Assembly: GCA_964202905.1 (NCBI GenBank)
Contig: CAXNJO010000004.1
Location: forward strand, 322,345-386,344
Direction: 5' to 3'
Origin: Polyangiales bacterium
Lineage (GTDB): Bacteria; Myxococcota_A; Polyangia; Polyangiales; JADJQN01
DNA: 64,000 nucleotides
The notes under the pieces are model-generated. The model saw nothing but the letters and a program-made list of their open reading frames with translations, was not told the origin of the DNA and ran no database searches. The first letter of the stretch is position 1, and each line of letters begins with the position of its first letter. A program made the position numbers and the translations under genes. Positions 25,681 to 35,123 of the stretch are shown here, piece by piece.

Positions 25681-26050
25681 GCGGGGCTGCGCAAGGAATG
25701 CGCGGAGAGGGTCACGCCAAGCCGACCCGCCGAGCCGGACGAGACCATCGTGGAGCGCCTGGACGCTCGGACCACCTCCGTGTTACCCAGACCATCTTGC
25801 AAGATCGTTTTACATCCTGGACCCACCATGACGTCGCCTCCGGCGCACTGAGCGGGACGCCGCGGCCCGCGCGGAGCGATGCGCCGCCCCGACGCATCAG
25901 CTCCTCGCCGCCCGGAGGGTGCCTCGCAGAAGCGGTCGCCGACGAAGTCACCGCGCGCCATTCCGCACCCGCATCTCGGGTGCATCCGGAAGCAGGCCGA
26001 ACGACCATCGCTCTCCACTCGCCGTCTCTGCATCAGGGGAATCCACGCGC

Positions 26051-28192
26051 ATGAGCAACTCGAATCAGTGGGCCGAACAGATGGCCGCCATGTTCGCGGC
26101 TGCCAACGTCGAGGCGGCCAAGAACGCGCTCCAGGCGCGGGCGACGACGACCGAACTCGAAGAGGCGCGCGAAGAGCTCCGCGCCGCCGAGGCGAAACAC
26201 GCAGCGAATCTCGAAGAGTACAAAGAGGTCATCGAACGTTTCGATACCCTGGCCGCGGCGGGATGGCCCGGGAGCGTCAAAGGGTGTTTCGGGGGCGCTG
26301 GGATTCTGGCTTTCGGCTTTTTCATTTCTCTCTGCGCAGGCGGCCATCCAGTCCTGACGGTGTTGCTATTGTTGATCGGAGGCCTTCTTGGCCTCTTCGG
26401 ATTTAGCGACCTCGAGAACTGGAAACGCCTCGCCGGCGCCCTTGCTCGCGAGCGTGATGAAGTTCGCGCGCGCGTGAAACACAGCGCAGAAACGGGCATA
26501 GCGATCACGACTCGCGGTCAGCAAATCGCAACCACGCTCGCCAACCTGGACTTAAAATCTCGGGTCATGACCTTGGGGCAAGTCTGGTTACCACTTCGAG
26601 TCGTCCAGGTTGGCGGCTATTCCGCGCTCGTCGACGAGTCTGGATGCGTCCCGGCGACCACGATCGCGCTTCCCGAGTTGCAGGCGAGCGACGATGTCCT
26701 CGGAAACGTCGAACGAGCGGTGAAGGCTGCCGAGCGTCGTCCGGTGTTGCTATCGGCCTCGGTCGACAACGGTCGCCCAACAACCCCCGGAATCCTTCAC
26801 GGCGAGGAGCTCCAACTCGCCGATGCGATGCGCGAGTTCAGCCGGATGGTCGACGGCGCACAGGTGCACCAATCGGAGGTTCGTCTCGTGGCGCGCGAGG
26901 ATGCGGTCGCCACGATGGCGCGTAAGGTCGGCGCGACTGAGAACCGTAAGGGCCCGATCCTCCGCGCCGGCGGTGACGCGAAATCCGCGGCCGCCAACAT
27001 CTCGGCCGTCCTCGGTCGGTCTCGCGCAGCCGGCACCAACACCCGCGATCGGCTCGCGCGCGCGGCATCCGACCTTCAGCGCGCGACCAACTCGCTGGGT
27101 GCGCTCCGCACACGGGCGGTGCAATCCGTACACGCCGCGGTCGCGGCCGTCGTCGAGCGCTCTCACTACGTCCACACTGTCGTCTACTGTCCCAAATGCA
27201 ATCAGGTTCCGGCCTACCTCTTCCACCGTGTCGGGCTCGAAGAATCCACCGTGCATGAGCTCTCGCCCGTCGAGATTCTCGACCGCATCGACCGCGACCC
27301 CGAATCGAGCGCACGCGTCGAGCGCGAGCCGGAGCTCCTCGACGAACTCGCGCAGGTCATCCTCAAGCTTCAGGAATTGCGGGCCATCGCGACGTCGACC
27401 GAGAGAATCTTCGAGGAGAAGCGGCAATCAGGGACCGTCGTGATCACGGAACTGCGCGCCCTCGAGGCCACCCTCCGCGCGCAGCGTTCGGAATGCGACA
27501 AACACGCACTTCAACTTCGTGGTTGCGTTCGTCGGATCGTCACCGGATCGATTCGGCCGCTGACCGAACTCTCCCGGCAGGCGTCGCTCATGCTGAACCC
27601 CGACACCCATCACTGGTCATGCGCCTCGTGCGCAACGACCTTCGAAGACCCGGCCATCGTACGGATGGGAGAGGTGCTTCGCATCCGCGACGAACTCATG
27701 AGTCCAATGTGGAACCATCTCTGGACGGAAAAGGCGGATTTCTGTCGCAGCGAGCTCTTCCGCTCGAATGAGCAAGTCGCGAACCTGATCGAGCGCGAGA
27801 CGGGCGCGATGCGCGACGTCGCGGAGCAGTACCGCGCCGACATGCGCCCCGTCCGCGAAAACCTGATTCTCTCGGTGACGAATGCCCTCGCTGGTCGGGA
27901 GCGACTGCATGCCACGCAGCAGAGCCTCGTCGCGCTGGGCGTCAGCAGCCGTGAAGCCGTCGAGAAGAACATGGAGGCCGTCGACGAGATGTTCGGCGGC
28001 GACCTCAACGCCATGCGCGCCCGCGTGGAGGCCAAGGAGACCATCCTCGTCCAGCTTCCGGCGACGCTCATCGGAACACGCCCCACGCTGCGTGACCCGA
28101 TCGAGCAGCACAAGGACGCTACGGAGATCTTCCATCGGCGGTTGACGGTCGAGACGCCGCGGCTCGCGAGCGACACGGCGGGAGAAGGCTGA
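26051..28192 (+). CDS. Island gene A: 713-aa uncharacterized membrane-anchored coiled-coil protein. It has an N-terminal helical region, a 2-TM hairpin, a large cytoplasmic domain and two Cys pairs (CPKC...CASC).
   Basis: ATG at 26051 (MSNSNQWAEQMAAMF) with AGGGGAA upstream. TM segment GILAFGFFISLCAGGHPVLTVLLLLIGGLLGLFGF. I recognise no catalytic motif. The stop overlaps the next start (TGATG). Confidence 0.6.
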   Translation: MSNSNQWAEQMAAMFAAANVEAAKNALQARATTTELEEAREELRAAEAKHAANLEEYKEVIERFDTLAAAGWPGSVKGCFGGAGILAFGFFISLCAGGHPVLTVLLLLIGGLLGLFGFSDLENWKRLAGALARERDEVRARVKHSAETGIAITTRGQQIATTLANLDLKSRVMTLGQVWLPLRVVQVGGYSALVDESGCVPATTIALPELQASDDVLGNVERAVKAAERRPVLLSASVDNGRPTTPGILHGEELQLADAMREFSRMVDGAQVHQSEVRLVAREDAVATMARKVGATENRKGPILRAGGDAKSAAANISAVLGRSRAAGTNTRDRLARAASDLQRATNSLGALRTRAVQSVHAAVAAVVERSHYVHTVVYCPKCNQVPAYLFHRVGLEESTVHELSPVEILDRIDRDPESSARVEREPELLDELAQVILKLQELRAIATSTERIFEEKRQSGTVVITELRALEATLRAQRSECDKHALQLRGCVRRIVTGSIRPLTELSRQASLMLNPDTHHWSCASCATTFEDPAIVRMGEVLRIRDELMSPMWNHLWTEKADFCRSELFRSNEQVANLIERETGAMRDVAEQYRADMRPVRENLILSVTNALAGRERLHATQQSLVALGVSSREAVEKNMEAVDEMFGGDLNAMRARVEAKETILVQLPATLIGTRPTLRDPIEQHKDATEIFHRRLTVETPRLASDTAGEG

Positions 28193-29334
28193 TGGCCGAG
28201 GGCGGAATCAGCGCGGGACAAGCGGAGAGCATCGCCCGCAGCGTCGCGCATCAGGTGGTTGCGCCGGTCCAGCGGGAAGTCAATGAACTGCAATCACGCA
28301 TTCGCGAATTGGAGGCGGAGATGGCTCGTGTCGAGGGCGCGATCAGGGACATGCATTCGAGCCTGAGGGATGGGTTGAGTGCTCTGAGGGAGACGAATTC
28401 CGACATCCTCAAAGCGCAGATCGCCACGACGGCCGCGACGACGGTTGGCCTCACGGCCGTGCAGCAGACGAACAGCAGTGGATTCTCCAAGGTCTCCACC
28501 GATCTGAATGTCGTCGATAGCAGCTTGAAGCAGATGAGTCAGGCGCTCGTGCAGATGGAGGTCATCCGCCAGATGCATGAAGTGAAGACGCCCGCGGAGC
28601 AGGTGGAGCGCTTCCAAGAAGAGATTGAGCAGCGATTTTCGAAGGCCGTGGAAAACGTCAACGAGGTGCGACGACAGTACGACGCGATGCAACTCCGCGT
28701 CGCCGACGATCTCGACAAGAAACTGCGTCATATCGGCTCTCACATATACCGCGTATTCGAGGAAGATTTCGAGGAGTTTGCGGAAGGCCCGCTCTCCGCG
28801 CCGTTCGACGCGACTATCGCGCTCGCACTCGAAGTGGACCTCGACGCCATCGAGCGCCGCGCCGAGGCCCTCGAGTCGACCCTCGCAAGTTTCGACGAAG
28901 GCCGTTTGCAGCCCCTGCTCTCCGCGCAATCCGAGCTCGAACACCTGTTCGCGTCGAAATACACCGTCGAAGGCATCACGGAAGAGACCTGCTACGTTCC
29001 CGTTTCGATATGTGAGCTTCAAGAGGGCGACCGCCCCTTAGTCCGCGTCTTGATAGACGAAACGCCGGTAGCGACCTCTGGCGAAGTTCTGACCATGTCT
29101 CTCAAGATGTCAGCCACCGGCCGCGCAATCGCCCAGCGGGTCGACCCGCTCGTCCGCGACCGCTTCAATCGGTTTCCCAAACGCCCGATTCGCCCCGATG
29201 AGCGAAGCAGGCTGAGCGCAGCACTATGGCGACTGGCCGAAGCAGGTCAGATTCCTGCGGAGTTGCTCGACGGCTACATTCTCGTGCTGGAGCAGGCCGA
29301 GCTACAACTCCTCGACGACGGAGAGGTGAAGTGA
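28192..29334 (+). CDS. Island gene B: 380-aa all-helical, coiled-coil-like uncharacterized protein
   Basis: Heptad-like QREVNELQSRIRELEAEMARVEGAIRDM... The start overlaps the gene A stop. The stop lies 1 nt before the gene C ATG. Confidence 0.6.
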   Translation: MAEGGISAGQAESIARSVAHQVVAPVQREVNELQSRIRELEAEMARVEGAIRDMHSSLRDGLSALRETNSDILKAQIATTAATTVGLTAVQQTNSSGFSKVSTDLNVVDSSLKQMSQALVQMEVIRQMHEVKTPAEQVERFQEEIEQRFSKAVENVNEVRRQYDAMQLRVADDLDKKLRHIGSHIYRVFEEDFEEFAEGPLSAPFDATIALALEVDLDAIERRAEALESTLASFDEGRLQPLLSAQSELEHLFASKYTVEGITEETCYVPVSICELQEGDRPLVRVLIDETPVATSGEVLTMSLKMSATGRAIAQRVDPLVRDRFNRFPKRPIRPDERSRLSAALWRLAEAGQIPAELLDGYILVLEQAELQLLDDGEVK

Positions 29335-29335
29335 G

Positions 29336-31285
29336 ATGCCCGAGCGAATCGATGCGGACCGCGTCATCGTCACCGGTCGCAGCGCGGGCAATCAGTTCCC
29401 GCGAACGCAGGCGACCATCCAGTATCGCTTCGAGGCCGACGGAACCGGACCGGACGGCCCGTTCGACATCGATGGATCGGTCTACGGGCGCGACATCCGC
29501 TTTCGCGGGCCAGGGACCGTGGGAGGTCCGGTGCTCGGCCGTGGCGACATCACGCTGAGCAACGAAGAAACGAGTCCGCAACGGTTCTTCGGCGGGCTGC
29601 ACGCGAATGGCAACCTCGGGTGCGACGGACCGCGACGCCCGCCGATAAATTCACCCATCGATGACGTGCGCAAATCCCTCTACGTGGTTCGCGGGGACGT
29701 CGTGGCCCGCAACGTGGTTCTGCGGAATGCCGTCGTCTTCGGAAGCATCCGCGCGACGAACATCACCCTCGAGCACTGCATCGTATTCGGCCAGCTCGTC
29801 GCCAAGGAGCGCTGCACGGTCGCTTGTTCAACCATCATGGCTTATCAGGCACCGAAGGTGGAGTTGCGTGGTCCATGCGCCTTCTTCTTCGCATCGGGGG
29901 AGAGCCACTCTGCACCGGAATGGCTGGACTACACGGACAGCGTCGGCCGCAAATGGCCATGGAGCGCAAAATTCTATCCACTCACGCGCCGTTCAGCGGA
30001 CTTCCCGATCGGCAATCGTCCCTGGCGTGACGGGGACGCTTCGCCCGACACGCTCCTCGTCCACGCGGACTGGGTCCGTACCGAGGTGGTCGAGGTTCAT
30101 CAAAAGGCAGGCTCTGCGGAGGCACTGGAGACCCACAAGGAGCGCTACGTCCTCTCGATCGGCCCGCGCGCGCTGGACTTCGCGTCCATCGAAGCCTCCG
30201 TGCTGACCACGGCCTGGCTCTTCGGCTCTGCGCTCGAATGGGGCCACTATGCCGAGCCCACGCGGGAAGAGGTGCGACGCCGAGTCACCGCGCGGTGCTC
30301 GCCCCAGGAAGCGCACGCCTTCGACATCGCGACCGTTCGCGAGCCCCTCCACGTAGAACGAATCCCCACGGACGGCACGCCGTCCACTCAATCCGTGCCA
30401 GGCGTGACAGCGGCTTCAATGCGCGCTCCTACAGGGGCTGGGATATCGAGTCCGGTAGTCGGAGTGTCGAAACCCGTCGTTGTCGGGAGGCCCGCAGCGC
30501 CGACCTCCTGGAATTCTGGGTTGCCGACCCAATCTGCGGATCAGCCAGCCTCACCGCCACTGGCAGCGAAAGCCGATATCTCTCAGGCCGGGCCGGCGGC
30601 TGATCCCATGGTGTCGCCCACAGAAACACCCGCGACCGGCGGAGCGTACACAAACGCGCCGTCGTCCCCGTCCAGAGTGCCGGTCAAGCCGCCATCAACG
30701 GGTTCGCAAGTCATCAAGTCCGCGGAGGATGACCCAACCCAGAAGTCAGCGCATCGGCCGACCGAGGCGCCCGCGCCCCTCCCAGCACCAGCGGTGTCCC
30801 ACATGGAAGATACGGCGGTACGCGTCCCTTCTACGCGCGCCTCCATGCCAACGCTGATGCACTTCTCGCGTCCGCCAGCGACTTCGACGGAAGCGACCTC
30901 GACGAACAGTCCGGCGCCTCCGATTCCGCGGCGCGTCTCAACGCCGACGCTCCTGCAAATCGCACCTCCATCGATCCCACCGACGGAAGATTCCCGCCCC
31001 TCAGCGGGGCCCGATTTGCCCGAGCCTCCCGCCGGAACGCAGGCCGCACCGACCCAGTCCATCAACGAACCGAGTTCCGAGGACATTCTCGCGCTCTTCG
31101 GAGCATTCAAGTCGACGATGCAATCCATCGGACTAGACGGCAACAACCTGAAGTTCCTCGAATTCTCGGAAAACGCTCGCCGAGCGTGGGCACGCGCCGC
31201 GGAGCAGCTACCCGGACGGTCGATTCGCCTGGTGCCATTTCCCAAGGACGGTCGAGTGAGTCTACGGGTCGAAGTCGTACATTGA
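29336..31285 (+). CDS. Island gene C: 649-aa protein. It has an N-terminal beta-helix-like (bactofilin-like, tentative) domain, a ~250-aa Pro/Ser/Thr-rich disordered linker and a small C-terminal domain.
   Basis: Repetitive hydrophobic-x pattern VVRGDVVARNVVLRNAVVFGSIRATNITLEHCIVFGQLVAKERCTVACSTI. The linker runs SVPGVTAAS...PSSPSRVPVKPPSTGS...PAPLPAPAV. C-terminal NLKFLEFSENARRAWARAAEQLPGRSIRLVPFPKDGRVSLRVEVVH. Confidence 0.55.
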   Translation: MPERIDADRVIVTGRSAGNQFPRTQATIQYRFEADGTGPDGPFDIDGSVYGRDIRFRGPGTVGGPVLGRGDITLSNEETSPQRFFGGLHANGNLGCDGPRRPPINSPIDDVRKSLYVVRGDVVARNVVLRNAVVFGSIRATNITLEHCIVFGQLVAKERCTVACSTIMAYQAPKVELRGPCAFFFASGESHSAPEWLDYTDSVGRKWPWSAKFYPLTRRSADFPIGNRPWRDGDASPDTLLVHADWVRTEVVEVHQKAGSAEALETHKERYVLSIGPRALDFASIEASVLTTAWLFGSALEWGHYAEPTREEVRRRVTARCSPQEAHAFDIATVREPLHVERIPTDGTPSTQSVPGVTAASMRAPTGAGISSPVVGVSKPVVVGRPAAPTSWNSGLPTQSADQPASPPLAAKADISQAGPAADPMVSPTETPATGGAYTNAPSSPSRVPVKPPSTGSQVIKSAEDDPTQKSAHRPTEAPAPLPAPAVSHMEDTAVRVPSTRASMPTLMHFSRPPATSTEATSTNSPAPPIPRRVSTPTLLQIAPPSIPPTEDSRPSAGPDLPEPPAGTQAAPTQSINEPSSEDILALFGAFKSTMQSIGLDGNNLKFLEFSENARRAWARAAEQLPGRSIRLVPFPKDGRVSLRVEVVH

Positions 31286-31319
31286 CCGAACATCAAGTTT
31301 GAACGAGCAGGAAACCATC

Positions 31320-32681
31320 ATGGGCATCCTCGATTTCCTCACGAAACCGGTTCGCGATCAGTTCATCGCGCGGCACCCGTCGGCGATGGATGCGTTGGTG
31401 TTCCGGCATCCGGACCAGAGCCTTCCGTGGGGCGCGAAGGTGACGGTGCGCGCGGACGAACAGGCACTCTTCTTCCGTGAGGGGCGACTGTTCAGCGCAC
31501 TCGGGCCGGGGACGCACACCCTCGAGACACGGCACCTGCCGTTTCTCGGCGATCTCCTGGTCAGCCCGCTGACGGGTGATCAGCACTTCATCACCGAGCT
31601 GTTCTTCGTCCGCACGAGCGAGCAGGCCCTCGCGCTCGGGCCGATGTCGGTGGGCATGCACCGGGATCTCGGCTCGGGGCATCTCGTATCGATTCTCGCG
31701 AGAGCGCGCGTGAACGTGCGCGTGGCCGACGCCGCGCGGCTCATCGTGGGGCTCGGGGGCCTTCGCGAGGATTCCGGGGCTCGTGTCGAGGAGGCCATTC
31801 GAGATCGGATGTCGTCCCTGCTCTCCGCGTGCGTGGGTGAGCTGGCGAGTTCGGCGTCGGTGGTCGAACTCGTCTCCAACCGCTTCTCGGAAGAGATGGG
31901 ACAGCGCGCGATGCAATTGGCCGAGGAGAGCCTCCTCGACACGGGCGTACGGCTCGTCCGGATGATGGCGTTGCAGCTCTCGCTCGACGCCGAGTCCGAA
32001 CGGACGCTGCGCGACTTCGGCGCAGCGCAGGCGCGCCTGAACATCGAGCGTCAGGGCGCGGACGTGGCGACGACGCCGGGATTCGCGGCCTACCACGCGG
32101 CCCACGGGCAGCGCGCGCTCCTCGAGGGGATGGGCACAGGCGCGGCGAAACACGGCGCGCCGGCGATGCTGATGCCGCTCGCGATGGGCGGCGTGCCGGG
32201 CACGTCGGTGCCCTCCTTCGGGACTTCGGCGATTCCCGCTTCGCCCTGGGGCGGCATCACGACGCGACTTTCGCGGCCCCCGGAAGAAGCCCGCTACGAG
32301 CTGCGCACTTCGCGCGGCATCGACGGCCCGTTCGTCGAGCGGCAGGTCGCGTTGCGGCTGCGCGTGGCCGGCTTCGATGCCGCCCAGACCTACATCCGTC
32401 GCGTCGGCGAGACAGGCTGGACACCCCTCGAGGAACATCCCGTCGCGCGTACTCTGATCCAGCAGTCGAAGGCGCTCCCGCTCCGCGCTGGCGTCGGCCC
32501 GAACAAGACGGAGCGCTTCGACCAGGCGCTCGAGCTGGCGGCGGCCGACGGTGTCCTCGCCGCGGCCGAGTTGACGCTCCTCGCCCGGATTGCGCACGAA
32601 TCTGGCCTCGCCGCAGACCTCGACGCCGCGCGCGACTACGTGCTCGTGCGCGCCCGAGCGCTCGGTCTCACCCTGCCCTGA
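31320..32681 (+). CDS. Island gene D: SPFH / Band-7 family protein of the Band_7_1 (YdjI-like) type with a C-terminal TerB-like helical domain
   Basis: MGILDFLTKPVRDQFIARHP...FFREGRLFSALGPGTHTLETRHLPFLGDLL matches the characteristic Band_7_1 N-terminus. C-terminal ERFDQALELAAADGVLAAAELTLLARIAHESGLAADLDAARDYVL is TerB-like. Start chosen at the ATG with AGGAAA at -8; the track ORF starts 7 codons earlier. Confidence 0.7.
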   Translation: MGILDFLTKPVRDQFIARHPSAMDALVFRHPDQSLPWGAKVTVRADEQALFFREGRLFSALGPGTHTLETRHLPFLGDLLVSPLTGDQHFITELFFVRTSEQALALGPMSVGMHRDLGSGHLVSILARARVNVRVADAARLIVGLGGLREDSGARVEEAIRDRMSSLLSACVGELASSASVVELVSNRFSEEMGQRAMQLAEESLLDTGVRLVRMMALQLSLDAESERTLRDFGAAQARLNIERQGADVATTPGFAAYHAAHGQRALLEGMGTGAAKHGAPAMLMPLAMGGVPGTSVPSFGTSAIPASPWGGITTRLSRPPEEARYELRTSRGIDGPFVERQVALRLRVAGFDAAQTYIRRVGETGWTPLEEHPVARTLIQQSKALPLRAGVGPNKTERFDQALELAAADGVLAAAELTLLARIAHESGLAADLDAARDYVLVRARALGLTLP

Positions 32682-34645
32682 CGGCCCTCCGCCGCGCGGG
32701 CGCGAAGCACCTCGAGGCGGCGCTCGACGAAGCCCGCCGCGCGCAGCGACATGGCCATGATGGTGAGTTGCGGGTTGACGCCGAGCGCGCCCGGGAGGGC
32801 CGACCCGTCGCAGACGAAGAGGTTGTGCACGTCGTGCGCCTCGTGCGTCGCGTCGACGACCGAGCGCCAGGGATCGCGCCCCATACGGCACGTGCCGAGC
32901 GGGTGGTACGCGGAGATGTCCATGTGCCGCGCGGCGAGGTCGGCGCGCTCGAGCGCCTCGACGTCCGCGAGGCTCGCGAGGCGTTCGTGCCCGGCGATGG
33001 GCGGGTGCACGGTCTGCGCGCCCGCCGCGAAGAAGACCCGCGCGAGGATCGCGTAGCCGCGCTGCATGCGCGCGCGGTCGTGGCGGCCGAGCCAGTAGGC
33101 GAGCCGCGGCGCGCCGTCGTCGCCGAGCGTCACGCGCCCGCGCGATCGGTCCTTGATCAGGAAGCCGAAGCCCACCGAGCGGCGGTACTGCTCCATCAGC
33201 GCGGTAAACGGCGGGCCGTACGTCGTGAGCGTCGCGGCCGTCACGTCGAGCGGCGCGTGCGCCCCCTCGAAGAGCAGGCCCTCGTCGCGGAACTCGTCGA
33301 TCGCATAGCCCTGCGGGACGCTGCGCCAGCCCTCGAGATCCTCGCCGAACACGCCGATCGCCGACGACGCGGGGTGGATCGAGAGGTTGCGCCCGACCTC
33401 GCCGGACGCGTTGGCAGCGCCTCCGCGCAAGAGCAGCGCGGGCGTGTGGAGCGCCCCACACGCGAGCACCACGACGCGCGCACGCACGCTCACGCGCACG
33501 GTGCCCGTCGGTCCGCGCGCCGTGCCCGTGACGCCGACGGCCGTCTCGCCCTCGTCCTCGGTGAGCACGCGATCGACCGCGAATCCCGTGAGCATTTGCG
33601 CGCCCGCGGCGAGCGCAGCGGGCACCCAGGAGACGTTCGCCGAGCGCTTGGCGTCCGTCGGGCAGCCGAAACAGCAAAGGCCTTGACCATCACAGCCGGG
33701 GGCATTGCGTGGGAGCGCGTGGTGCGCGTAGCCGAGCGCGTCGCAGCCCCGGGCGATCACGTCGGCGGGCTTGCCGAGCGCCGACGCGGACGAGGGCGCG
33801 ACGCCGAGGAAGGACTCGACCGCCTCGTAGTGCGGCGCGAGATCGGCGGGACCGAGGCCCGTGATCCCCTGCGAATCGCGCCATTCCGCGAGGGTTTGCG
33901 CGGGCGCGCGCAGGCAGGTGCCGGAGTTGATGAGCGTCGAGCCACCGACGGCCATCCCGACGGGGATGGGGATCGCCGTGTTCCCGAGCGCGACGGTGAA
34001 CCCGCCCGCGCGATAGGCCTTCTTCATCATCGAGAGCGGGCGCCCGTCGAAGTCGAGCCGCGTCAGGTGCGGGCCCTCCTCGACCATGAGCACCGCGTGG
34101 CCGCGCTCGGCGAGGGCCTTCGCGAGGGGCGCCCCGCCCGCGCCCGTCCCGACCACGACCACGTCGCACTCGAGCGTCTCCCCGTCCGCGAGCGCGCCTG
34201 CGTCCGTGATCTGCCGGCGCCAGCGCGCGGGCTCGAGCGCGGCGGGCCGCTCGACGCCGTAGCGGCAGCCGATCGCCGCATAGACCTGCGGGTCGTCGAA
34301 GTGCGCGAGCTTGATCGGCGCGAGCAGCCCGCGGAGCGGCACGCGCAGCAGCTCCGAGCGGCTCCACGCGTCGAGGGCCGCGAGGCGCCCCGCGCCCGAC
34401 TGCGCCGAGAAGCGCGTGCCCGTCCGCGCGAGCGTCTGCATCTCCAGCGACCAGAGCAGCGCGCGGTAGCCCCGCGCCACGGACGGCGCAGCGCCCGCGA
34501 AGAAGCGCTCCACGCGCCGGTACGTCCCCTCGCCGGGCGCGGCGAGCAGCGCCCCCGCAGGCAGCGCGACCTCGCCGAGCGCACGCAGAATGGCCCGCTC
34601 GCGCGCGTCGAACACGTCCGTCGCGCCCCCGCGCGTCGCGGCCAT
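32636..34645 (-). CDS. GMC-family FAD-dependent oxidoreductase
   Basis: Dinucleotide-binding motif ECDVVVVGTGAGGAPLAKALAERG. C-terminal GMC region HPLGTCRMG. The start, at the M of MAATRGG (cat 34643-34645), lies 1 nt after the upstream stop. Confidence 0.8.
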   Translation of the reverse strand: MAATRGGATDVFDARERAILRALGEVALPAGALLAAPGEGTYRRVERFFAGAAPSVARGYRALLWSLEMQTLARTGTRFSAQSGAGRLAALDAWSRSELLRVPLRGLLAPIKLAHFDDPQVYAAIGCRYGVERPAALEPARWRRQITDAGALADGETLECDVVVVGTGAGGAPLAKALAERGHAVLMVEEGPHLTRLDFDGRPLSMMKKAYRAGGFTVALGNTAIPIPVGMAVGGSTLINSGTCLRAPAQTLAEWRDSQGITGLGPADLAPHYEAVESFLGVAPSSASALGKPADVIARGCDALGYAHHALPRNAPGCDGQGLCCFGCPTDAKRSANVSWVPAALAAGAQMLTGFAVDRVLTEDEGETAVGVTGTARGPTGTVRVSVRARVVVLACGALHTPALLLRGGAANASGEVGRNLSIHPASSAIGVFGEDLEGWRSVPQGYAIDEFRDEGLLFEGAHAPLDVTAATLTTYGPPFTALMEQYRRSVGFGFLIKDRSRGRVTLGDDGAPRLAYWLGRHDRARMQRGYAILARVFFAAGAQTVHPPIAGHERLASLADVEALERADLAARHMDISAYHPLGTCRMGRDPWRSVVDATHEAHDVHNLFVCDGSALPGALGVNPQLTIMAMSLRAAGFVERRLEVLRARAAEGRQGRVRPSARARTST

Positions 34646-34646
34646 C

Positions 34647-35123
34647 TCAGCCGCCCCGCAGCGCTTCGCGCGCGACCGCACGACGCCGCACGTCGAGCAC
34701 GCGCTGCTGCACCCGCGCGACGGGCAGCCACGACGCGAGAAAGCGCGGCAGCGTGCGCAGCGCGAAGCCGAGCTCGCCCTCCGCGCGCACCACGCCCTCC
34801 GCGTCGCGCAGCGTCACGGGCATGCGCGTCATCGATCGCAGCGGCGCGCGCAGCGAGACACGCTTCTGCGCGTCGAGCGTGAGCGCGTCCCCGCCGGGCA
34901 GCGCGAGCCGCAGCGCGTAGGTGATCGTGCGGGCGCGCGCGTCGATCGCGAGCGTGCCGTGTGCGGGCACCTCGGCCCCCCACGGCAGCGCCCACGCGAG
35001 CCCGCGCAGCGCGAAACGCCCGCCCGCGCCGCCGTGCGCGCTCACCTCGAAGCGCAGCGGCGTCCGGACGCCCGCGCGGTCCCGGACCGTGCCCTCCATC
35101 GTCTCGACGAACGAAAGCTGCAT
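34647..35123 (-). CDS. hypothetical protein (158 aa), co-transcribed with the GMC oxidoreductase
   Basis: Non-repetitive ORF. Tight coupling to the downstream gene. Confidence 0.45.
   Translation of the reverse strand: MQLSFVETMEGTVRDRAGVRTPLRFEVSAHGGAGGRFALRGLAWALPWGAEVPAHGTLAIDARARTITYALRLALPGGDALTLDAQKRVSLRAPLRSMTRMPVTLRDAEGVVRAEGELGFALRTLPRFLASWLPVARVQQRVLDVRRRAVAREALRGG

Follow-up and report, generated by a model that had tools for sequence, protein, structure and literature searches.

What does a protein that joins an SPFH domain to a TerB-like C-terminus do, and does that C-terminus tie it to tellurite resistance? The question is raised by gene D, which lies near the middle of a 64,000-nucleotide stretch of contig CAXNJO010000004.1 from a Polyangiales bacterium (the window, in whose coordinates all positions are given). 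An earlier, sequence-only reading had described D as an SPFH (Band_7_1) domain fused to a TerB-like domain and had linked it to tellurite-resistance or stress-type modules. We assign a probability of about 0.55 to a different reading, in which D would be a peripheral membrane scaffold resembling YdjI/SamI of B. subtilis, with an SPFH-GYF-TerB-type tail that would recruit partners, encoded in a mobile A-B-C-D operon, and not a tellurite determinant. Gene D and the parts of its product are as follows.

31320..32681, + strand: gene D, an intact open reading frame with its stop codon, encoding a 453-amino-acid soluble SPFH-GYF-TerB-type protein
31413..32018, + strand: SPFH / Band_7_1 domain (residues 32-233; PF13421), with a predicted local distance difference test score (pLDDT) mostly >90 in an AlphaFold2 (AF2) model
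31989..32150, + strand: two long helices after the SPFH core (residues 224-277; AF2 helices H224-251 and H255-277)
32151..32282, + strand: disordered Gly/Pro/Ala/Ser/Thr-rich linker (residues 278-321)
32283..32474, + strand: GYF_2-like adaptor domain (residues 322-385), with an invariant G336-P337 (GP[FY] motif)
32505..32678, + strand: TerB-type single repeat, a three-helix module (residues 396-453; motif AADGvLxxxELxxLxxIAxxxGL)

The open reading frame and both peptides quoted in the sequence-only reading were found in the 453-amino-acid translation, which is identical to an NCBI record of the same length (P0001). The ATG is preceded by AGGA, 8-9 nt upstream, and homologues share the start MGI(F/L)DFL; an in-frame TTG at 31299, upstream of the ATG, is unused by them. 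GC content at third codon positions (GC3) is 0.85 and thus coding-like. A GMC oxidoreductase gene on the minus strand (open reading frame 32636-34681), convergent with D, overlaps its 3' end by ~46 nt (32636-32681). Since the highest 19-residue Kyte-Doolittle hydropathy of D is 1.54, with no segment at >=1.6, there is no stretch of transmembrane (TM) grade, and gene D encodes a soluble Band_7_1-type SPFH protein without a membrane anchor.

Assignment of the N-terminus to Band_7_1 was upheld by both sequence and fold. Pfam PF13421 (Band_7_1) matched residues 32-233 of D with E=1.5e-16 (61.1 bits against a cut-off of 24), PF01145 (Band_7) matched with E=1.2e-6, and a full-length AF2 model (pLDDT 86) placed an SPFH core at residues ~25-222. 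Foldseek searches with this part retrieved stomatin, HflK/C, erlin, prohibitin, QmcA, and flotillin with E-values down to 3.3e-10; against ring- or cage-forming SPFH proteins, values ranged from 3e-10 to 1e-6 over ~250 columns. The alignments (240-260 columns) span the full stomatin and HflK/C chains, and in the predicted model the helices at residues 224-277 appear to correspond to the coiled coil from which SPFH rings are built. The SPFH1/2 plus coiled-coil helix fold of D is therefore, as modeled, that of stomatin, HflK/C, prohibitin, erlin, flotillin, and QmcA-YbbJ. However, these ring or cage complexes have a TM helix or hairpin anchor of their own and in bacteria are often paired with NfeD or FtsH, whereas D has neither, and no NfeD or FtsH gene stands beside D in the window flanks.

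Between the SPFH part and the C-terminal module lies a conserved GYF_2-like domain that the sequence-only reading had overlooked. Pfam GYF_2 (PF14237) scored 12-13.6 bits on D (E=0.058-0.19), below its 25.8-bit gathering threshold, and matched 14 of 44 orthologous modules, with a best E-value of 1.8e-5. The AF2 model of this domain has a β-β-α-β fold, as in the RAGNYA-type GYF with its GP[FY] motif. The preceding linker, with pLDDT <50 at residues 283-319 and a composition rich in proline (0.16) and glycine (0.18), varies in length among family members. The predicted order of D is therefore an SPFH core with two long helices, a ~45-residue disordered linker, the GYF_2-like domain, a short linker, and a single TerB-type repeat. 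A two-domain fusion of SPFH to TerB does not describe the protein, since the GYF_2-like domain and linkers intervene and only one TerB-type repeat is present.

Bacterial GYF domains are not new to SPFH proteins: SPFH/Band 7 + GYF was catalogued as a prominent GYF architecture in 2007 (Balaji & Aravind, RAGNYA fold paper, PMC2034487). That listing has the same SPFH-then-GYF order as D and includes neither a TerB-type repeat nor an A-B-C-D operon. D is accordingly a tail variation on the Band_7_1 SPFH scaffold, in which the SPFH+GYF part was known already and the TerB-type repeat after GYF is absent from the 2007 listing. A bacterial GYF domain has been shown to bind a proline-rich sequence, a zinc ribbon (ZnR) adjoins the GYF domain in ~44% of bacterial GYF proteins, and the two are frequently paired as a switch module (PMC11135422).

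To place this tail among its relatives, we scored 8,000 word-sharing candidates and retained 114 proteins at E<=1e-10. Their public annotation reads only SPFH or "membrane protease subunit", and a precomputed TerB match is attached to none of the 114. SPFH and the GYF-like module occur together in all 110 full-length relatives (110/110). Beyond this constant part, a TerB-type repeat follows in 69 of the 110 and is replaced by a CxxC...CxxC zinc ribbon in 20, while the remaining 21 lack both; therefore, the terminal module appears, from these sequences, to be an exchangeable appendage. Many Myxococcota members also possess a second GYF_2 domain.

How far the tail of D deserves the name TerB depends on the kind of comparison. 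The motif D410-G411-x5-E417-x3-L421...G429-L430 is present in D and conserved across the family, where the module consensus is AFxxAxxAAxxDGxLTxxExxMLxxLAxxxGL. Pfam TerB gave no match to the whole D protein at E<=0.1; on the isolated last 67 residues, TerB (PF05099) reached E=0.027 (15.2 bits, where the cut-off is 24.4), matching 29 residues at profile positions 80-108 of 118. Weak TerB matches recurred in orthologues (5/15 and 9/44, best E=0.0044-0.0063), among which DUF533 was also found (best E=1.2e-4). Fold searches with the D tail recovered no solved TerB structure; a module profile compared with PDB sequences had the TerB-family entry 2OU3 as its top match (E=0.12).

A module profile (A8; 44 sequences, 58 positions) searched against 1.84 billion representative proteins returned 207 proteins at E<=1e-3. 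We checked against Pfam the 130 non-SPFH proteins among the best 150 listed of these 207 (E<=2.3e-4): 79 of the 130 (61%) had a significant TerB match, the best at 2e-24, while DUF533 occurred in 32 and Tic110 in 39. Many of the proteins retrieved beyond the SPFH members were matched 2-8 times, on the helix-DG-helix unit, and P0156 (132 amino acids) is made up of two modules in tandem, as is normal for TerB with its two repeats. An independent hhalign comparison with E. coli DjlA aligned the module to residues 134-166, where the TerB domain of DjlA has its second DG repeat (P=1.6e-4, probability 51%). The module has ~57 amino acids in three helices; a two-repeat TerB domain spans ~118 profile positions. 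Since true TerB proteins are among those that the profile retrieves, and the DjlA alignment lies on the second DG repeat, the D tail is probably one TerB-type repeat, about half a domain, that is kin to TerB at the profile level and not a TerB domain by the Pfam criterion. The idea of a TerB-like tail thus holds as to the DG...E...L motif and profile-level relatedness, and fails as to a significant Pfam match and a complete domain. With the wider TerB group (PF05099; TerB, the DjlA N-terminal domain, DUF533/YebE; DinB, BnzA, and SngA from defence systems), D shares the helix-(A)DG-x5-E-x3-L-helix repeat; it differs in having a single repeat below the Pfam cut-off, no ter operon, and no PADLOC match to Bunzi or Shango components. 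Among the A8-retrieved proteins, P0115 (8 module matches plus HNH) and 11 others are multi-TerB-repeat proteins with a C-terminal HNH endonuclease domain.

The same scores bear on whether the tail is a TerB homologue at all. The DG-x-L-[ST]-x-x-E-L motif might be a convergent helix-cap/N-cap supersecondary motif or a SHOCT/DUF1707-like oligomerisation unit, which would make the tail a small three-helix interaction or oligomerisation domain. That every Pfam TerB score is sub-threshold fits such a view, as do sporadic matches to the SHOCT-like DUF1707 (2/15, 1/44, and 3/130) and an orthologue, L003, that ends in a putative SHOCT-like segment. We nevertheless judge convergence rather unlikely, given the proportion of independent proteins retrieved by A8 that carry curated TerB (61%) or DUF533 (32 proteins), the repeated matches per protein on the helix-DG-helix unit, and a DjlA alignment that falls exactly on a TerB DG repeat.

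To ask which system D belongs to, we turned to its neighborhood. Four genes, A-B-C-D, form an operon that ends with the translationally coupled D: the start of B overlaps the stop of A (TGATG), a 1-nt gap separates B from C, and a 34-nt gap separates C from D. The other three genes are the following.

25919..28192, + strand: gene A, 757 amino acids from the GTG at 25919, with an N-terminal coiled coil, a hydrophobic hairpin (residues 120-166), and a large conserved cytoplasmic region (~500 amino acids)
28192..29334, + strand: gene B, 380 amino acids, a coiled coil with a C-terminal globular part, its start overlapping the A stop
29336..31285, + strand: gene C, 649 amino acids, with a ~330-amino-acid β-helix-like core, a ~240-amino-acid Pro/Ser/Thr/Ala-rich linker, and a ~65-amino-acid C-terminal domain

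The A-B-C-D order was found in two metagenome contigs (L001 and a contig from the European Nucleotide Archive, ENA) and at least 14 genome loci, that is, in essentially every genome locus with enough flank. Hosts include Myxococcota, Novosphingobium/Sphingomonadales (Alphaproteobacteria), several Betaproteobacteria, and Holophagales (Acidobacteriota). In proteobacterial cassettes a further gene, X, lies between C and D (L020:9507-9998; equivalents in L010-L019 and L026-L029); it encodes a 4-TM protein of ~140-165 amino acids with a conserved cytoplasmic tail motif, [SP]LPxKxxRRx[YF]ExP. Neither X nor this motif occurs in the window or in any Myxococcota cassette.

Positions 25900-32700 of the window form a compositional island, in which genes A-D have a GC content of 0.61-0.70 and a GC3 of 0.73-0.85 against ~0.73 and 0.88-0.96 in the flanks. 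Its borders hold no integrase, tRNA, or credible att-like repeats. Elsewhere the cassette often stands beside integrases, insertion sequence (IS) elements, or toxin-antitoxin (TA) genes (L024, L026, L027, L029). In the window the neighbors are MatE and M24 peptidase genes upstream and GMC oxidoreductase, GntR, fatty acid hydroxylase, and MMPL genes downstream; here, as in Limnohabitans (24 contigs), they are housekeeping genes. Relatives of D were not found in IMG/VR, and plasmids yielded distant SPFH proteins only, with no cassette. The A-B-C-D cassette is horizontally mobile, compositionally foreign in this genome, and uncharacterised.

Two other loci are of note. On a 1.85-Mb metagenome contig (L026:3809-5056), a five-gene cassette lies immediately downstream of a tyrosine integrase and is bracketed by two IS21 (IstA/IstB) copies of identical architecture, with a Prim-Pol gene nearby, which suggests that it is carried on a composite mobile element. 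At L002, whose contig begins just upstream of D, a DpnII-MboI nuclease gene lies near D.

This context bears directly on the proposed link to tellurite resistance, according to which the fusion would connect the SPFH scaffold with modules for tellurite resistance or Ter-type stress. The DG...E...L motif, the weak TerB matches, and the retrieval of TerB proteins by the module profile are what speak for it. However, TerB stays below the Pfam threshold with one of its two repeats present, a GYF-like domain separates SPFH from the tail, and the module is missing in 41 of the 110 full-length family members. Moreover, the cassette flanks contain no ter genes (terZABCDEF, TerC, TerD), and the conserved partners A, B, and C belong to no Ter family; D sits instead in a conserved cassette of unannotated proteins. 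The link of D to a ter module is thus largely refuted, and we regard it as most improbable.

The closest parallel for D is, in our opinion, YdjI/SamI of B. subtilis (pspA-ydjGHI / samGHI), whose homologues the sequence-only reading had named for comparison. Both are PF13421 proteins without a membrane anchor, and in each case the gene is the last of an operon that also encodes membrane proteins (PMC8581546). YdjI is soluble, with a low-complexity stretch plus a zinc finger at its C-terminus; YdjG/H, encoded in the same operon, bring it to the membrane, and it serves as scaffold for a client (PMC8581546; bioRxiv 10.64898/2026.02.06.704340). The D cassette differs in lacking PspA/ESCRT-III and YdjG/H, in place of which it has A, B, and C, and the tail of D adds a GYF-like domain and a TerB-type repeat. 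A second parallel is the ZnR-GYF switch of M. xanthus GltJ (PMC11135422), to whose ZnR-GYF pairing the GYF+ZnR and GYF+TerB-type alternatives of the D family correspond. In D, however, GYF is C-terminal to an SPFH scaffold and not N-terminal to a membrane receptor, and its partner module is a TerB-type repeat.

By analogy with YdjI/SamI, the SPFH and coiled-coil part of D could drive its oligomerisation on the cytoplasmic side of the membrane, to which D would be brought by membrane proteins of the cassette (A here, A and X in Proteobacteria). Its flexibly tethered tail would then act as an adaptor. The GYF-like domain may recognise a linear segment, proline-rich or otherwise, in a partner; the Pro-rich linker of gene C and D's own linker are candidates. 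The terminal module, a TerB-type repeat interchangeable with a zinc ribbon, may be a second interaction, dimerisation, or membrane-proximal sensing unit, much as in the ZnR-GYF switch, and single TerB-type repeats of neighboring subunits might pair to rebuild a TerB-like bundle. The whole cassette would most likely be a membrane-surveillance or membrane-stress module; TerB domains have themselves been proposed to be amphitropic membrane-surveillance modules (bioRxiv 10.1101/2025.09.30.679545).

Several points weigh against this scaffold model. Oligomerisation, membrane recruitment, and partner binding of D are proposals by analogy, and TerB is under the Pfam cut-off in every family member scanned. 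A, B, and C are without informative homologues. PspA_IM30 matched none of A, B, and C; B is thus not detectably PspA/ESCRT-III, and the analogy with YdjI stops short of the client. Nor did we find a Pro-rich motif common to all cassettes: the Pro-rich linker of gene C is restricted to some of the Myxococcota cassettes, and the window cassette lacks the conserved X-tail motif. This last motif (PLPxKxxRRxYExP) had been considered as a GYF ligand and was set aside on the grounds of its absence, together with X, from the window and all Myxococcota cassettes.

The partner proteins were searched in their own right. Against Pfam, NCBIfam, PADLOC, and PHROGs, only Band_7_1/Band_7 of D was significant among A-D, and profile searches against PDB sequences gave no significant matches for A, B, or C. 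For A and its orthologues, the large conserved region had no family match. The N-terminus of A (window 25919-26600, residues ~37-190) comprises a coiled coil, the hairpin (19-residue Kyte-Doolittle maximum of A, 2.41), and a second coiled coil. Its family profile weakly resembles components of ClyA-type α-pore-forming toxins (NheL1, E=0.005; MakE, E=0.008), and single orthologues match Bacillus_HBL and HlyE at E~0.004-0.005; this resemblance is marginal and could be compositional. The start of A is uncertain: the NCBI protein (P0262) has 713 amino acids, 44 codons fewer, with its start at ~26051, and orthologue alignments are conserved only after residue ~45-60.

Gene B gave only generic coiled-coil matches in the family libraries and in the PDB profile search, and a PspA/ESCRT-III identity found no support. 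In gene C, the core showed weak, recurrent matches to LbH_EIF2B (8/16) and Bactofilin (4/16; best Bactofilin E=0.023), along with repeat patterning in the alignment. Its low-complexity linker (window 30370-31282 with the C-terminal domain, residues ~345-649) has a proline fraction of 0.19. The ~65-amino-acid C-terminal domain (ILALFGAFKSTMQSIGLDG...RVSLRVEVVH) is common only to the orthologues L001 and L007; the remaining orthologues stop where the β-helix-like core does, and in L004 a GYF_2 domain takes this place.

The ClyA-like resemblance of A, taken with the mobility of the cassette, raises the possibility that A-B-C-(X)-D is a novel anti-phage or abortive-infection system, in which D would survey the membrane and gate a membrane-damaging effector (the A hairpin or X). 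This would be compatible with the domain description of D given above and would specify its physiological role. A patchy distribution across phyla with conserved synteny is consistent with such a function, as are the foreign GC3, the integrases, IS elements, or TA genes adjoining the cassette in L024, L026, L027, and L029, and the DpnII-MboI nuclease gene near D in L002. In addition, the defence systems Dionysus, Bunzi, and Shango contain TerB domains (bioRxiv 10.1101/2025.09.30.679545). However, PADLOC returned no match at E<0.001 for A, C, or D and only weak coiled-coil matches for B (LmuB, ZorA tail, JetC), PHROGs returned none, and in Limnohabitans and in this window the cassette has housekeeping neighbors. 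The ClyA-like similarity is also marginal and confined to the coiled-coil/hydrophobic region. We view a defence role as unlikely.

Another conceivable reading is a cytoskeletal or morphogenetic scaffold without a role in stress or defence, in which A would anchor a bactofilin-like β-helix polymer (C) and a coiled coil (B), and an SPFH ring (D) would organise them. The recurrent Bactofilin and LbH matches and repeat patterning of C, and the long coiled coil of B, would suit this function, and GYF domains do act in the myxobacterial gliding-motility scaffold GltJ-AglZ (PMC11135422). Nevertheless, the Bactofilin matches are far below threshold, and a mobile-island context with patchy distribution would be unusual for core morphogenetic machinery, which makes this explanation very doubtful. 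In the literature, we found no paper that brings bactofilin operons together with SPFH, and no account of a defence system based on SPFH.

More speculatively, the cassette might be an undescribed mobile membrane system, for example an anti-phage or membrane-surveillance machine, in which a soluble SPFH ring would sense perturbation via its GYF-like and TerB-type adaptors and control a membrane-inserting partner (the ClyA-like coiled-coil/hairpin of A, or the 4-TM protein X). We consider this unlikely as it stands; if it were true, three of the four cassette proteins would found new families.

For the scaffold model, the significance lies first in the family to which D belongs. Understanding of soluble SPFH scaffolds of the YdjI/SamI class is just beginning to emerge, and the GYF-like and TerB-type modules are absent from the public annotation of D-type proteins, which are labelled only "SPFH domain-containing protein". 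In the D family, that SPFH chassis carries an exchangeable adaptor tail (GYF with a TerB-type repeat, with a zinc ribbon, or alone) and belongs to a different conserved, mobile operon, whose three other products fit no known family. It therefore offers a tractable case in which to study the recruitment of SPFH proteins that lack an anchor and the binding targets of half-TerB and bacterial GYF modules. The uncharacterised cassette, which could be a new membrane-stress or defence system, is a more interesting lead than the D tail itself.

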